The notes under the pieces are model-generated. The model ran no database searches. It had not been told where the DNA came from and saw only the letters and a program-made list of their open reading frames with translations. From a virus (Duplodnaviria > Caudoviricetes), in IMG/VR virus record IMGVR_UViG_3300011444_000007, positions 1 through 41,449 of that record: a stretch of DNA of 41,449 nucleotides, one strand, 5' to 3'. Below are positions 11,156 to 32,139 of this stretch, piece by piece. Within the stretch, counting starts at the first letter, position 1. Each line of letters starts with the position of its first letter. The position numbers were made by a program, and so were the translations under genes.

Positions 11156-12046
11156 GGTGTCCTCGGTGATCGCTCCCATCTGTGTGCCTGGCACTGGCGA
11201 GGCGGGCGGCTTCTTGCCATCCGCGACCTTGCTCGCCTCGTCCCCTGGCTGTGACTCGGTGCTTCCGGCATCGCCGCGTTCGCGGATCGCCGCGATGACG
11301 GCCTGCAGGTCCGCGACGCTGATCGCGCCACTCTTGATCGCCTTGACGATCGCCTTGGCGTCCGGGCTGGTCGCACTCGCGTCCTCGCCCTGCTGGTCGT
11401 CGGCGGCCGACTTGTCCTTGCGGTCATCGGGCACGCCTTCCTTCGGCTCCTTCGGCTTCGTGTCGGCGCTGGCGTCCGCACCGAACTCGAACTGCACCTC
11501 GGCGCGCTCGCCCGCGTGGAACACCACGACCGACTTGGATCGGAACGCGGCTTCAGCCGGCTCGTCGACCTCGAGCACAGGCAGCCGGCAGTGCGGCACC
11601 TGGTCGTCGAGCAGGGCAAGCGAGTCGATCGACGGCGTGTCGAGCTTGTGGATTTCGACCGATCGGTAGGGGAAGCGCGACGCCTGCACCTCGGCCGCCA
11701 CGTCGGGGTTCGTGATGTGCAGTTCGGCCATCACGGCCATGCGCGACTCGCCGCCGAACTGGATCTGTTCGGCGCCGAGCACGCGGAAGTGGCCGGCGGG
11801 CTTCACGTCGCGGCCCTCGCCGTGGTGCTGGACGTGCAGCGGCGGCAGATAGCCCTCCCGCTCCTGTTGCTGCGCGCGCCCGATGGCAGCCGAGATCCAG
11901 GCCGCGTCGAACTGCTTGACGTGCCGTTCATCGCCCTTGCCGACCTCCTTCGATGTCTCGACGAAGATCGGGACCCGATGCACCACCACGCCGCCGCCCT
12001 TGCGTCGGGTCGACTTGAATCGCGGCAGGGTCGCGGCTGCGGTCAT
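10628..12046 (-). CDS. Prohead protease/scaffold (Mu gp32 I-like, 472 aa)
   Basis: N-terminal LHVQHH...PAGHF...FPYRSVEI...SLALL protease-like motifs; C-terminal Ala/Lys helical scaffold. Confidence 0.75.
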   Translation of the reverse strand: MTAAATLPRFKSTRRKGGGVVVHRVPIFVETSKEVGKGDERHVKQFDAAWISAAIGRAQQQEREGYLPPLHVQHHGEGRDVKPAGHFRVLGAEQIQFGGESRMAVMAELHITNPDVAAEVQASRFPYRSVEIHKLDTPSIDSLALLDDQVPHCRLPVLEVDEPAEAAFRSKSVVVFHAGERAEVQFEFGADASADTKPKEPKEGVPDDRKDKSAADDQQGEDASATSPDAKAIVKAIKSGAISVADLQAVIAAIRERGDAGSTESQPGDEASKVADGKKPPASPVPGTQMGAITEDTMTKTDPKPEVTMATKPEDAIAMAALQGKLDVLEAKFAARDAVDKRREAVSGAMKKLAGRATGSGIEDKLTKFHEGCKGTEAEVQAQFNAYVEVWMSAPPSTPNFGGGGAAMVAEALPAIAMKYSAAGTTAVEKAAKLAAEWEVQSQLGLSTTQDRYVEIHMTRAGFKAPAAKATA

Positions 12047-12107
12047 TGCGCGCGGGACCCTATGCAAGGCCGCGTCAGCAACCGTCCGATTCCGGACCGG
12101 ATTGCTA

Positions 12108-12323
12108 CTACTCGAACCGGCGCGCTTCCCTCAGAGCCTTCTCGTCGAGCATGCGTTCGATGCATTCGATGGTGCGCGGCTGCGGCACGTCATCGCTGTT
12201 CAGCAGACGGAACACTGTCGAGCGTGATGCCGGAATCTCTCTCGCTACGGCATCGGCGCCGCGCATCTTCACGACTTCGCGCAGCCTCTCGCGCGTGTCG
12301 TCCCAATCGTCGCCGATCTTCAT
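12108..12323 (-). CDS. Small Cro/XRE-like HTH protein (71 aa)
   Basis: GADAVAREIPASRSTVFRLLN...PQPRTIECI. ATG overlaps the MuF stop. Confidence 0.75.
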   Translation of the reverse strand: MKIGDDWDDTRERLREVVKMRGADAVAREIPASRSTVFRLLNSDDVPQPRTIECIERMLDEKALREARRFE

Positions 12324-14131
12324 GGCGAGACTCCCGCGAGGTCGGGCCGGCCCTCGTGGCGGAACCCAGGGTCTGGGAACGCGCCAGGAGGCACCGCGCT
12401 CTCGATCACGGTGCCGTCGGTGCGCAGCCGCCCCATTCGCCGAAGATCTGGCCGCGTGACCATCGAGACTTGGCACCGGCAGTTACTAGTGACGATGCCA
12501 CCTGCTACAATCCAGCCGTTCCTCGTCTGGAAGTCGTAGACATGACCCGAAAAATCGAAGTGGCGAATCTCGGCGACGCGATCAAACGCTACCTGTCCGG
12601 CGTGAGCATGACGCAGCTTGCCGGAGAACTCGGCATCAGCCGCGGATGTCTCGCCTCGAACCTCTGCCGTGCGAACGTTGCTCTGCGCGGCCGATCCGAT
12701 GCTGAGACCATGAAGTGGTCGCAGCGCAAGGCAGGCCCCGACTACAGGAGCATCGTCAGGCGCCAGTGCGGTGCCGCCTGGAAGGCTGCGCTCGGGTGCA
12801 CCAGGAGTGAGGATACGCAGATTCGTATCGCTCTCTCCATGGCGGGCAAAGCCCGTGGCTGCGGCGCAAAGAACGAGGTTGAGGTCGCGACGAGGCTCGC
12901 CGGCATGGGGATGAAGCCGCTCTGGCAGCATCCAATCGGCCGATACAACGTGGATGTCGCCTTTGAGGAATCGCGCGTCGCCGTGGAGATTCAGCGGCAG
13001 TTCCCGGCCACGAAGCATTCGACGCGGCACTGTTCCACGCGCCACGATCGCCTCGAACACATCCTGCGCGCAGGGTGGCATGTGCTGTTCGTCTTCTGTC
13101 CTCCGACCCATCGCTACCGTGGCATGCGCGAGCGCTTCGATTGCGGCAGAGTCACGGATCAAATCGTCGCCTTCTGCGATCTCGCCAGCAGGCTTCCACC
13201 CGGTCCGCGTCAGTATGGGGTGATTGACGGTTACGGCAAGCCAACCACCGCCCTCCGTCTTGATCTCGACGGCTGGACCCGAGTATCTGGCTTTTGACGC
13301 GATCTCGACAGCGCCGCAAATGCGCGTTCCAGGCAGAAAGCAGTTGAAGCCCAATGGGGGCGCGAGCTTGTTCCAGACTGGATTGTCGACCGACCAGACG
13401 TGGTTGTCGGCAGCCCGATGGTTCGGCCGCGTGTCCGCGTCGTTCACCGAATCGAAGCGGAAAGCCGGGATCACCGCCTGCACGGCCGGGTCTTGCACCT
13501 GCCGGAATCGCCCCGCCGACACGGCCGTCGAGACGTTCGTCAGGAAGGCGGTGCGCGCGTAGGAGTCGGTCCACGCCTCGGTTTTCTGGCGCAGTTGGTC
13601 GACGTTCTCGCGGATGTGCGCTACCGCCTCGGACGTGGTGAGGCCCGTGCGCATCGCCTCGATGATCTGGGCGTGCACGCGCTCGGTGACTGCCTGCTCG
13701 GCGCTGCGAGCGAACGCGACCACACGGCCCTGGCTGTAGAGGCGCGCGATTTCGGCGCCTGTGCGCTGCGCCGCGTCACGAAGCACCACGGGCGTCCTGG
13801 TCACGAGGTCGTCGATGGCTTCCTGCAACGGCACGCTCGCGACCGCGTCAATCGCGGAGTCGCGGAACGTGATGAGTAGCGGGATATCGGCTCGCATCCC
13901 GACGCCCATTTCCAACATCGCGCCCGCCGCGTGGCGCAGGGTCGACCTCGCTCCGTGCAGCTCGGCTCGCGCCATGGTCTCGGTGAGGCTGGCTAGCAAC
14001 CTGCTCCTGGCCCACGCCGCGCCCTCATTGTCCTGCATCGCGATCGCGACCAGCAAGCGTCGCAGCGATTCGAGGTAGTCGCCGAAGCCGTCGCCCGCGT
14101 GTTCCAGGAATCGCGTCGCGTCGTCGATCAC
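12320..14131 (-). CDS. MuF / SPP1 gp7-family head morphogenesis protein, intein-containing (603-aa precursor, about 316 aa spliced)
   Basis: TNVSTAVSAGR, DSVNDADTRPNH, W...PPLGFN|CRC motifs. The conserved PPxxxNCRC is interrupted by a Hint domain. Follows the portal. Confidence 0.92.
   Translation of the reverse strand: MIDDATRFLEHAGDGFGDYLESLRRLLVAIAMQDNEGAAWARSRLLASLTETMARAELHGARSTLRHAAGAMLEMGVGMRADIPLLITFRDSAIDAVASVPLQEAIDDLVTRTPVVLRDAAQRTGAEIARLYSQGRVVAFARSAEQAVTERVHAQIIEAMRTGLTTSEAVAHIRENVDQLRQKTEAWTDSYARTAFLTNVSTAVSAGRFRQVQDPAVQAVIPAFRFDSVNDADTRPNHRAADNHVWSVDNPVWNKLAPPLGFNCFLPGTRICGAVEIASKARYSGPAVEIKTEGGGWLAVTVNHPILTRTGWKPAGEIAEGDDLIRDSAAIEALAHATVAMGRRTEDEQHMPPCAQDVFEAIVARGTVPRRMLRGRELPLNLHGDARFLKGDIHVVSADWMLPERLHPHAGEPRRDLNLVLCAAATGFARHGESDTNLRILTPGAPERSLPGGTALAPDDAPVVGACLALRPLHGLSIGSAAQSNVRTAEVRGETSAADAEFSGKLRHAHAGQVAFDRVAEIRHFDFSGHVYDFQTRNGWIVAGGIVTSNCRCQVSMVTRPDLRRMGRLRTDGTVIESAVPPGAFPDPGFRHEGRPDLAGVSP
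12483..12511 (+). promoter_or_regulatory. Candidate sigma70-type promoter (extended -10) for the antisense endonuclease, inside the intein C-terminal block
   Basis: TGcTACAAT at 12503-12511, weak -35 TTACTA 17 bp upstream, 30 nt before ATG 12542. AT-rich island in a GC-rich genome. Confidence 0.55.
12542..13297 (+). CDS. Putative homing endonuclease (HTH + NUMOD3-like + DUF559/Vsr-like domain, 251 aa) encoded antisense inside the intein
   Basis: HTH: YLSGVSMTQLAGELGISRGCL. NUMOD3-like: GCTRSEDTQIRIALSMAGK. DUF559-like: NEVEVATRL..G....QHPIGRYNVDVAF...RVAVEI...H...DRLEHILRAGWHVLFV. Confidence 0.85.
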   Translation: MTRKIEVANLGDAIKRYLSGVSMTQLAGELGISRGCLASNLCRANVALRGRSDAETMKWSQRKAGPDYRSIVRRQCGAAWKAALGCTRSEDTQIRIALSMAGKARGCGAKNEVEVATRLAGMGMKPLWQHPIGRYNVDVAFEESRVAVEIQRQFPATKHSTRHCSTRHDRLEHILRAGWHVLFVFCPPTHRYRGMRERFDCGRVTDQIVAFCDLASRLPPGPRQYGVIDGYGKPTTALRLDLDGWTRVSGF

Positions 14132-28406: not shown

Positions 28407-28675
28407 GGCTTCGGCTCCTCTCCCGGCTGAGGCGGCGCCGGCTGCGGCTTCTGCCGTGGCCGGCGTAGGCCATGTGACCCATTTCCGCCGAGGTAGAGGT
28501 CGACGAACTCGAGCATCCCAAAGCCGCCGCGATCAGCCAGCCGCACCAGGGACTGACCATTGCCATAGAAGCGCGCGTAAGATTCGTACGCGCGCCGCGC
28601 CGCGTCCATCGACACGGTGAGGCCTGTCTGGATCGGAAAACGGCCGTCGGGCTCGCCCTGCACGTCGATGTTCAT
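28403..28675 (-). CDS. Hypothetical protein (90 aa)
   Basis: AYESY...YG.GQSL.RLADRGGFG motif; GGAGG RBS. Confidence 0.7.
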   Translation of the reverse strand: MNIDVQGEPDGRFPIQTGLTVSMDAARRAYESYARFYGNGQSLVRLADRGGFGMLEFVDLYLGGNGSHGLRRPRQKPQPAPPQPGEEPKP

Positions 28676-29265
28676 GGCTGCTTCGCCTCCATCGCCGCCA
28701 GCCGTTCGAACGCCGCGAGGAACGCGCGCTTCGCGACCGGCGGCGGCAGCGGATCGATGTGCGCGAGGTCCGGCTCGGGGAGGCCTGGCCATCGCGGGTC
28801 GCCCATCAGGTCGCGCGCCTCGGTCGCGAGCGCGATGTCGTCGGCAAGTTTGATCTCGGAGCGCTCGACGATGTCCAGCTCGAGGATCCCGAACGCCTGG
28901 CGGATCTTGCGCATGACGCGAGCCTCGGTGCGGTCGAACGATTCGGGCGATCGCTCGTCGCGCGCCACGAACAAGAACGGCTTGATCGGCCGGATGACGT
29001 CGCCGAGGTAGGCCTCGGCCGCGTCGTGCAGGAGCGCGTGCAGCGCGAGGCCCGGGTGATCGCGCTCGACCAGCGACATGACGTGCAGGCTGTGCTGCGC
29101 GACGCTGTACCAGGGATCGCAGCGCCCGCCGAATCGGCACAGGTTTGCGAGCGTAGTACCGATCGTCTCGATGTCGACCTCGTCGGCGCGAGGGTCGAGC
29201 GGCCAGAAGCGCTTGCCGTTGGCGAGCCCCATCCAGTCGCCGATCCGGTTCTCGCTGGTCGTCAT
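28672..29265 (-). CDS. HD-domain phosphohydrolase (YfbR/YfdR-like 5'-deoxynucleotidase, 197 aa)
   Basis: CRFGG, YSVAQHS, LLHDAAEAYLGD and IKLADDIALATE motifs. Confidence 0.9.
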   Translation of the reverse strand: MTTSENRIGDWMGLANGKRFWPLDPRADEVDIETIGTTLANLCRFGGRCDPWYSVAQHSLHVMSLVERDHPGLALHALLHDAAEAYLGDVIRPIKPFLFVARDERSPESFDRTEARVMRKIRQAFGILELDIVERSEIKLADDIALATEARDLMGDPRWPGLPEPDLAHIDPLPPPVAKRAFLAAFERLAAMEAKQP

Positions 29266-29459
29266 GGCAGGCGCTCCTCGCGGATCCTGTCCAGCGTCTC
29301 GCGCTGCTTGTCCGTGAGCAGGCCACCGGTGCGCAGTCGCTTGGTCAGGCTTTCGACCAGTTCGATCTCCCATGGCGTCAGGCCCTCGCCGTGCTCATCG
29401 AGTTCCTGCAGGTCGGTCCAGCCGGCCTTGTCGATGATCGTGCTCGGGAAGGTGGTCAC
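29262..29459 (-). CDS. Hypothetical protein (65 aa)
   Basis: GTG with GAGG RBS; LTPWEIELVES...LTDKQRETLDRI pattern. Confidence 0.7.
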   Translation of the reverse strand: MTTFPSTIIDKAGWTDLQELDEHGEGLTPWEIELVESLTKRLRTGGLLTDKQRETLDRIREERLP

Positions 29460-30150: not shown

Positions 30151-32139
30151 CTATAGCGAGATCAGTTGCAGTGCGGCAACGTGGCGCTCACCCTGCTTCA
30201 CCGAACTCTCGGGCGTCTCGTGCAAGTTGTCGTCGCGGCTGCGTTCCAGATCGTCCGCATCGACGAACACGAACTGCCCGTCGCTGTCCATCTGGGTCTG
30301 CAACGCATCGCGCACCGGCTGCATCTCGACAACGTTCACGCCCTGCGCGTCCAGTTGCGGTCGGCGCCAGCTGATCGGCAGCGCCGCGCCACTCGTGCGG
30401 GTCGAAAGGTCAGCCCGGAGGTCGCGCACGAAGTTCGGCAGCTCGGCCGCGAACGCGGCACCGCCACCTACCACTGAATGGTCGTTGTGTCCGAGGCTCA
30501 CCGCGATCCCGCGCGCGTCGGCCTGCTTGGCATAGGTCGCGTTGATGTCGGCGATCGCCTCATCGCGGCACGCCAGCAGCACGGTATAGTTCTCCGCGCT
30601 GGACTTCTTCCAGCGCCCGCCCGACACGCCCGGAATGTAGGCCTGGGCCTCGCTCGCCAACGCGCTTCCGTTCGTCGCGACCTTCACGACCGCGAAGCCA
30701 TCCGGATGCAGCAGTCCGAGCTGCGCCATGAACGAAAGGTCGGGGCCCGATGCGCTCTGCACGGTGCCGGCCGTGTTGCTGTTCACTCCGGGCTCGTAGA
30801 CTTCCAGCACGCCAACGCCGTGGTTCAGGATCTTCTGATGCGCCGGGCGCAGCAAGCTCGGCGGGTTCGGGCCCGAGATGAGCGGGCTGTTGCTGTTCGT
30901 GACCCACGTCACGTTGGCCGGCCCGACCATGATCGAATCGCCGATCATGTAGTAGAGCGGCATGCCGCCAGCCGCCACATCCGGGGTCCCGGCCTGTAGG
31001 CGCGCGATGGCGTGCGACATGCGCTCGCCCATCGTGAAGTACTCGGCCTGCGCGTAGTACTTGACCTCGGTCGCCGGGGTGTCGCCCGGGCTGACGATCT
31101 GCCGGCCGATGCGCGCGCCGTTCATGTCGACGATCGCGACGTTGCTCAGTTCCACCGCGACTTCGCGATGCAGCCCGCGCCAGTAGTGAGCGGCGAGCGG
31201 CGCGGTCGTACTCCACAGACGCTCATCGTGGTTGACCAACACGACGCGCAGGTCGGAGTTGCCAAGCGTGGTCTTGATCCACGCGATCATCTCGAGCAGC
31301 CGCGCCTTGTAGGCGAGCGCGATCAGCGGCGCGCTGACGGCCGCGATCAGGTCAGACATCGAGAGGTCGATGATCGCCTCGTTCCACGCGATCGTATTGC
31401 CGTGCGCCGAAGCGGCCGCGACGACGCGCGCGAGTTCCAGCGCGAAGGCCGCGCGCTGCGAGTTGTTGGGCGAGTCTGCCCAGCCGGTCGACACGGGTGC
31501 AGCGGTCGCGACCTTCCACAGGTGGAAGTAGGGCGCCTCGTCGTACACGTCCTCGAACAGCCTGCGGATCAGCGTTGCGTCCGGGCCGATGCCGCCCGTG
31601 CTCGCGAAGCTGCTGCCGCCGCGCGACGACGGAACGAGCCCGAACTCGTTGATGTCCAGCCATCCGGCGATCGGGTGGTAGTCGGTGAATCGGCCGGTTC
31701 CCAGGAAGAAGTAGGCGCCCACGGTCGGCGCGGACGTGGCGCCGAACGTCAGGGTGTCGGCCGTGTTCGAGATCACGGACATGCGCTGCCGGAATCCGAC
31801 TGTCGGCACAGGCGCCGTGTTGATCTCGGTCAGTCGTCGGCCTGCCCACTCGTTCGTGGTCCACACGGGGCTCGGCGAGACCGTGATCGTCGTCGTCGTG
31901 CTGCTCGCGACCTGGAAGAAGGTCGTGCCCATGTTGCCGTCGTAGAACGGCCAGCACGACAGCGACGCGGAGGTCGGCGCGCCGGTCGTTGCGTTGTCCG
32001 GCGTGATGCGCAACACCTCGCGGTCGAGCATGTTCTGCAGCAGCGTGCTCATCAGCCCGTCCGCGACGTTGGGCATGCCCGGATTGCCGCCCTGGCCGTG
32101 GTGCTCGCAGAAGTAGATGACGCCCGGGACCGTGGCCAT
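30151..32139 (-). CDS. Tandem SGNH/SASA-like carbohydrate esterase protein, probable receptor-binding or tailspike (662 aa)
   Basis: C-domain has IGDSIMVG, GPDLSF, VKVATNGS, LGHND and DNLH. N-domain has the same layout but degenerate motifs (HHGQGG, GPDATL, LSMSD, EVKY). Confidence 0.75.
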   Translation of the reverse strand: MATVPGVIYFCEHHGQGGNPGMPNVADGLMSTLLQNMLDREVLRITPDNATTGAPTSASLSCWPFYDGNMGTTFFQVASSTTTTITVSPSPVWTTNEWAGRRLTEINTAPVPTVGFRQRMSVISNTADTLTFGATSAPTVGAYFFLGTGRFTDYHPIAGWLDINEFGLVPSSRGGSSFASTGGIGPDATLIRRLFEDVYDEAPYFHLWKVATAAPVSTGWADSPNNSQRAAFALELARVVAAASAHGNTIAWNEAIIDLSMSDLIAAVSAPLIALAYKARLLEMIAWIKTTLGNSDLRVVLVNHDERLWSTTAPLAAHYWRGLHREVAVELSNVAIVDMNGARIGRQIVSPGDTPATEVKYYAQAEYFTMGERMSHAIARLQAGTPDVAAGGMPLYYMIGDSIMVGPANVTWVTNSNSPLISGPNPPSLLRPAHQKILNHGVGVLEVYEPGVNSNTAGTVQSASGPDLSFMAQLGLLHPDGFAVVKVATNGSALASEAQAYIPGVSGGRWKKSSAENYTVLLACRDEAIADINATYAKQADARGIAVSLGHNDHSVVGGGAAFAAELPNFVRDLRADLSTRTSGAALPISWRRPQLDAQGVNVVEMQPVRDALQTQMDSDGQFVFVDADDLERSRDDNLHETPESSVKQGERHVAALQLISL

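Follow-up and report, generated by a model that had tools for sequence, protein, structure and literature searches.

How is a nuclease gene expressed when it lies on the strand opposite to the intein that carries it? Such a gene is unable to use the mRNA of the host gene, and the accessible text of a 2025 preprint describing anti-sense VSR-like homing endonucleases in full inteins of actinobacteriophages left their expression open (Gosselin, Arsenault and Gogarten, bioRxiv 10.1101/2025.01.02.630785). The question is raised here by the window, the whole stretch of DNA that was analysed: a complete phage record of 41,449 bp with 67.6% GC and direct terminal repeats, whose gene content includes a Mu-type portal, MuF and capsid. 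The relevant features are as follows.

12320-14131, minus strand: MuF (Phage_Mu_F) head morphogenesis gene, host of the intein, between a Mu-type portal gene and head genes (Pfam PF04233, E 1.8e-13; PF14890, matching the intein at E 1.2e-6, below the Pfam curated cut-off)
12482-13342, minus strand: predicted intein of 287 aa (Cys1, block B TVNH, block F GHVYDFQ, block G WIVAGGIVTSN, +1 Cys)
12542-13297, plus strand: antisense gene of 251 aa, with an N-terminal helix-turn-helix region and a Vsr/DUF559-like nuclease domain
12529-12533, plus strand: Shine-Dalgarno-like GGAAG, in the block F D-F/L-Q codons (family form GGAGG/GGAGA)
12517-12519 (about 12518), plus strand: predicted transcription start, placed by spacing from the -10 box, 24 nt before the ATG
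12503-12511, plus strand: predicted extended -10, TGcTACAAT, spelled by the Ile-Val-Ala codons ATT GTA GCA (box 5/6 to TATAAT)
12483-12488, plus strand: predicted -35 box, TTACTA, in the Asn, Ser and Thr codons that close the intein (3/6 to TTGACA)

The MuF insert is a predicted self-splicing intein. It is in frame and has an N-terminal Cys (CFLPG...), a TxxH block B (TVNH), a C-terminal Asn and a +1 Cys (...SN/C), features from which splicing would be expected. The penultimate residue of block G is Ser, not His. A penultimate His is not obligatory for inteins, and within the family described below 91 of 173 inteins end in SN and 68 of 173 in HN. A 70-aa ORF directly after MuF (12108-12320, minus strand) resembles a helix-turn-helix regulator by eye and had no Pfam, NCBIfam or PHROG match. 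Elsewhere the window phage has a 5'-deoxynucleotidase-like gene (28672-29373) and a SASA esterase domain (30151-32139), and a PHROGs search with 36 window ORFs returned neither an integrase nor a repressor.

The antisense ORF lies entirely within the intein, codon against codon, and its ATG comes from reading the block F His codon, CAT, on the other strand. This double use explains why these inteins retain the block F His. The product is predicted to be a Vsr-like homing endonuclease and would have nuclease activity. Five residues, E112, Q129, D138, E149 and W179, are invariant in an alignment of 12 nuclease sequences; a check of the same alignment for the EDxHD catalytic set found no invariant His. 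Profile matches included 3HRL (E 9e-4) and I-Bth0305I (E 0.07). The structure model (pLDDT 79) had 1VSR as its best Foldseek match (E 5e-3), followed by 3R3P (E 0.04). Foldseek returned nothing at E 0.001 or better, so the resemblance to the Vsr fold is weak. PHROGs holds no family for the nuclease, and a viral scan with the nuclease alone as query gave no confirmed match. The antisense frame stays open well upstream of the ATG, for 593 codons (11516-13297, plus strand), and this run through the adjoining genes would lead a gene caller to the wrong start. P0021, the closest nuclease relative, was called with such an upstream antisense extension. No terminator was called between 13297 and 13400 in the window.

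The intein family is large, with 277 viral and 364 metagenome matches. From 304 gathered loci, 282 were parsed, 22 having been missed by the end-of-intein pattern and left out; these gave 240 family members, or 173 after removal of near-duplicates. Three of the family scans used a protein pattern containing GHVYD, by which the His, but not the choice of codons, was pre-selected; one further locus set was selected on other residues. Among the best 80 of the 277 intein-selected viral loci, all carried the antisense ORF, 79 in the same codon-against-codon frame and one frameshifted. The ORF was intact in 143 of 146 scorable relatives and its stop lay inside the intein in 137 of these 143. The first-pass annotation had proposed a self-contained element, and in the window boxes, start and stop do all fall within the intein. 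The stop lies within the first 20 intein codons, where the third base of residue +15 is A in 62 of 124 relatives compared to 14 expected. Dual coding also affects the N-terminal splicing region. Four close inteins are 92.9-99.9% identical while their N-exteins are 71.5-97.4% identical, and the inteins were more alike than the N-exteins in 6/6 pairs, a signature of homing.

Several members depart from this layout. The antisense ORF is broken in L054, L056, L114 and L160, with a box at the first of the two promoter positions described below still present in L054 and L114. The block F His is replaced in L204, L211, L221, L230, L233, L246, L256 and L269, and in these an ATG is present two to three codons deeper in the intein sequence. 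L244 is a 161-aa mini-intein that resembles the antisense-nuclease family, has Gln for the block F His and lacks the antisense ORF and either promoter box; it is likely a decay product.

The first-pass annotation had placed a promoter for the nuclease gene in the C-terminal splicing codons of the intein, and its positions for both boxes, GGAAG and the ATG at 12542 were correct. The sequence TGcTACAAT matches an extended -10, is separated by 17 bp (TTACTA to TACAAT) from the -35 and sits 31 nt ahead of the antisense gene. The -35 is the weaker part of the proposal, at 3/6, and a consensus promoter scan of the window made no call at 12483-12511 because of it. TGnTAnAAT and TACAAT each occur a single time in the 41,449 bases, counting both strands. 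The A/T-ending codons of WIVAGGIVTSN are indeed unusual: in the 15 long ORFs of the window, ATT makes up 5% of Ile, GTA 1% of Val and GCA 9% of Ala codons, and GGT, ACT and AGT make up 11%, 5% and 7% for their residues. When the last 15 intein codons of the window were synonymously resampled, the score of the extended -10 was reached in 0 of 200 draws (p 0.005). A hairpin at the antisense start was not found (mean z +0.37; 1 of 154 below -2).

If these codons serve a promoter, relatives should preserve the synonymous sites and ordinary inteins should not, a comparison that was set beforehand. Third bases were compared to each locus's own extein usage in the 136 members with enough extein, 130 of which have standard spacing; the group for this promoter position was the 82 members not ending in His-Asn. 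At residue -9 the third base was A in 54 of 79 (8 expected; z 17.6) and T was depleted (4 vs. 13 expected). Enrichment of A together with depletion of T is not plain AT drift. At residue -8 the third base was A in 47 of 82 (10 expected), at residue -10 it was T in 38 of 67 (14 expected), and at residue -3 it was A or T in 65 of 82 (21 expected). On the opposite strand these biased third bases fall, in the same order, on the -12 T (supplied by rare A-ending codons at residue -9), on the T of the TG, on an A within the -10 and on the final base of the -35. In P0021 the upstream sequence reads C-D-N, which implies G at -12. Not every A/T-ending codon is part of the signal: the Ile-Val-Ala triplet is, whereas the position of GGT (residue -7) is biased only weakly in relatives and the Ser codon is mostly AGC (59, vs. 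13 AGT). AGC gives the better -35, TTGCTW. The family consensus is TTGCT(A/T), as TTGCTT in 29 and TTGCTA in 25 of 97, and the mean -35 match is 3.35 in members with the box at this position compared to 2.7 in others. In relatives, A occupies the place of the predicted transcription start in 36 of 82 (15 expected).

The translation signals are conserved in the same manner. All 86 CTN codons for the Leu of DLQ are CTC, which yields GGAG, and GGAG or GAGG is present at the ribosome site in 125 of 165 members. The start codon at the block F His site is ATG in 128 and GTG in 26 of 165. Neighbouring fourfold sites are scrambled (Gly -12 ends in C/A/T/G in 27/27/21/16), and Val is GTA in 27 of 38 at residue -9, compared to 6 of 53 at residue -4 and 5 of 97 at residue -20. 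The end branches of the family tree are long, with a median of 0.91 changes per site. Given the scrambled neighbours and long branches, inheritance alone does not explain the bias.

The bias is absent from ordinary inteins. A shifted null was used that allows for the lower GC3 of the intein (shift -0.9 vs. extein), with a weight matrix of approximate frequencies. Under this null, 111 of 136 members scored above their own null and 52 did so at p<0.05 (window p 0.005). Among ordinary inteins, 7 of 31 were above the null and one was at p<0.05; among MuF inteins without the nuclease, which are AT-rich, the counts were 7 and 0 of 19. Codon bias was absent from the 31 distinct chromosomal inteins of the ordinary kind that share the block G pattern. 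At GC of 0.60 or above, TAnAAT was found in 37 of 97 family members and 1 of 38 ordinary inteins, and TGnTAnnnT in 35 of 97 and 0 of 38. As a whole, the controls do not represent GC-rich phage inteins, since they come from chromosomes or are AT-rich (mean GC 0.39). Control locus L338, from an unpublished genome, was left out.

Members ending in His-Asn mostly spell the -10 elsewhere, from I-I-T/A, five codons nearer the intein end and often as TGTTATAAT. In the 48 His-ending members, the third base of residue -4 is A in 23 of 46 (4 expected). Among 165 members, TAnnnT is present at the first position only in 53, at the second only in 41 and at both in four (Fisher p 1.5e-5); 67 have it at neither position, a count that falls to 29 when the rule is relaxed. 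On the tree, 28 and 25 changes are required for the two positions. Exclusivity of the positions on independent tree pairs was not significant (median p 0.5 and 0.625), and neither was a tree test of His against the second position, with too few supported pairs in both. Because independent supported pairs are so few, the sequences suggest, but do not establish, that one position compensates for the other. A perfect TGYTATAAT is found at the second position in Jerseyvirus-type phages and an Acinetobacter-linked group (L082, L089, L090; L099, L305-L309). These loci include cultured test systems, and the antisense gene is unannotated in those of their GenBank records that were examined.

Antisense RNA over the nuclease gene, another part of the first-pass proposal, was abundant in one relative, L404. 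The data are raw stranded reads from one sample (run X24), one of five runs examined among 24 listed; X1 and X13 are unstranded contigs that show no transcript ends, and X21 and X22 have no reads. L404 is distant from the window: its intein is 99.4% identical to another intein, which in turn shares 27.6% identity with that of the window. It has the layout TTGCTT-17-TATCAT with ATG at 630. The antisense strand averaged 1,096x over 671-1340, compared to 4x upstream, and was about 38 times the sense depth. The dominant direction over the downstream head genes is the other strand, so the strong signal is antisense to MuF. Antisense 3' ends included 188 molecules at the stop codon, and the rest trail about 300 nt into the MuF N-extein; read-through depth falls over 1330-1650 with no sharp terminator. 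Dampening of MuF by the antisense RNA, which had also been suggested, is unsupported: the sense strand was 28x beneath the antisense RNA compared to 44x and 35x on the flanks, depths from a single sample that do not establish it.

The embedded signals are real and under selection, and they probably constitute a working promoter for the nested nuclease gene. Read on the opposite strand, the last 21 codons of the MuF intein contain the start codon of that gene, its Shine-Dalgarno-like site and what is likely to be a sigma-70-type promoter. The host housekeeping RNA polymerase would bind TGn-TAYAAT, helped by a weak -35, and start about 24 nt before the ATG at the His codon, from which translation would begin. 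The nuclease would thereby be made independently of late head-gene transcription and could cut intein-free MuF alleles, with repair copying the intein together with its promoter. In this reading the fixed bases come from the beta-strand pattern of block G (Ile/Val-Ile/Val-Ala/Thr), and the rare third bases are picked by selection; the strand would offer two such places five codons apart, of which the family uses one or the other.

The position of the RNA in L404 permits a different reading of the conserved motif. The 5' edge piles up at 623-624 (259 molecules). This edge lies 24-25 nt beyond the -10 box and past the conserved Shine-Dalgarno, and it is 16-18 nt further downstream than the start predicted at 606-608; the depth at 605-619 is only 39-44x. 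The antisense RNA might thus start or be cut 6-7 nt before the ATG, and TGnTAYAAT might be a protein-binding site, such as an operator for the helix-turn-helix region of the nuclease, rather than a core promoter. There is precedent in the T4 intron endonuclease I-TevI, which binds an operator over its own promoter (accessible text of PMC2988022). We nonetheless regard this reading as improbable. There is no -10-like sequence 7-12 nt before 623-624, a start there would drop the Shine-Dalgarno whose CTC is kept in 86/86, and the motif has the spacing of a -35, 17 bp and a -10. In standard stranded libraries the first bases of an RNA are often lost, and primary 5' ends are not kept by design; the offset of the edge could come from such loss or from processing. 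Promoter and operator roles of the motif could also both be true.

It is less probable still that the codon choice is a relic of ancestry, or reflects AT drift in a foreign element, with transcription coming from elsewhere. Intein codons are generally somewhat more AT-rich than those of the extein, with a third-base AT excess of z 2-6 at many intein sites in addition to the GC3 shift, and a flat antisense background of 33-40x precedes the L404 box. Against this, the bias is base- and site-specific, survives the shifted null beside scrambled neighbouring sites, and recurs at a second position. Antisense depth in L404 also climbs about 25-fold inside the intein end, and in one case, L244, loss of the nuclease and its His start codon is accompanied by absence of both boxes. 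The relic or drift explanation is largely refuted.

Equally improbable is that the bias reflects antisense protein coding upstream of the ATG, as the long open frame in the window and the call of P0021 might suggest, or rare-codon pausing that aids intein folding, and both were rejected: a stop within the 20 antisense codons before the start in 74 of 165 members indicates that the upstream stretch is not coding, ordinary inteins use common codons for the same [VI]-A motif (both codons A-ending in 0 of 19, vs. 17 of 46 family members), and pausing would not favour A-ending codons at residue -9 while favouring T-ending ones at residue -10.

An embedded host-type promoter would have a further consequence, which is offered tentatively. 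A dormant prophage might keep making the homing nuclease, leaving the lysogen armed against incoming intein-less relatives, such that homing doubles as a superinfection defence; interference between phages by an intron endonuclease is a precedent (PMC11620839). In its boldest form, selection on the -35 (TTGCT from AAC AGC) would have driven the penultimate His to Ser, the promoter having reshaped the splicing active site. Taken together, these two ideas are doubtful.

The finding matters in three respects. Approximately 63 bases do four jobs at once, encoding a splicing motif and providing the start codon, the ribosome site and the likely promoter of the nested gene; they are kept across more than 170 distinct inteins. 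Cultured phages carry the element, and in them the question of expression can be addressed directly by changing three codons. Finally, gene calls miss the antisense nuclease, which is listed in 0 of the 10 GenBank regions examined, a warning for annotation.

The element can be compared to several known systems. In the accessible text on T4 intron endonucleases (PMC2988022), a homing endonuclease likewise resides in a self-splicing element with its own promoter and ribosome site, and the whole is mobile together. Those genes are on the same strand of an RNA intron, with phage middle or late promoters in non-coding intron sequence and translation controlled by a hairpin, whereas the window gene is on the opposite strand, with a sigma-70-like promoter in protein-coding codons and no start hairpin. 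The Vsr-like endonucleases that lie between split inteins, and I-Bth0305I, have a Vsr-type fold (Dassa et al. 2009, accessible text of PMC2677866; PDB 3R3P), as is predicted for the window nuclease. The nuclease gene of Dassa et al. is free-standing between intein halves, whereas the window intein is whole and coding on both strands. Hidden, out-of-frame nuclease ORFs nested in in-frame inserts are also known for the ShiLan HNH (Arsenault 2025, PMC11855218) and a cyanobacterial dnaX intein (bioRxiv 10.64898/2026.09.14.751524), in each case with another nuclease family and host. The word "promoter" occurs 0 times in the main texts of both, and a literature search that took in few subscription papers, and preprints without supplements, returned no publication that describes a promoter inside the splicing blocks of an intein.

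The closest counterparts are the inteins of Gosselin et al. As stated in the preprint's accessible text (bioRxiv 10.1101/2025.01.02.630785), the layout is rare and second ORFs are typically outside the splicing domain; "promoter" occurs 0 times in the main text. Those inteins and that of the window share a contiguous intein with a separate opposite-strand ORF for a Vsr-like nuclease, and minor capsid is among the four host proteins of the non-canonical inteins described there. MuF inteins of Gordonia phages (L083-L085) match the nuclease profile at E 1e-38 to 8e-73. Compared to the inteins in that text, start, ribosome site and likely promoter here lie inside blocks F and G, in a large family and with RNA from one relative. 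The antisense Vsr-like layout is already known from the 2025 preprint.
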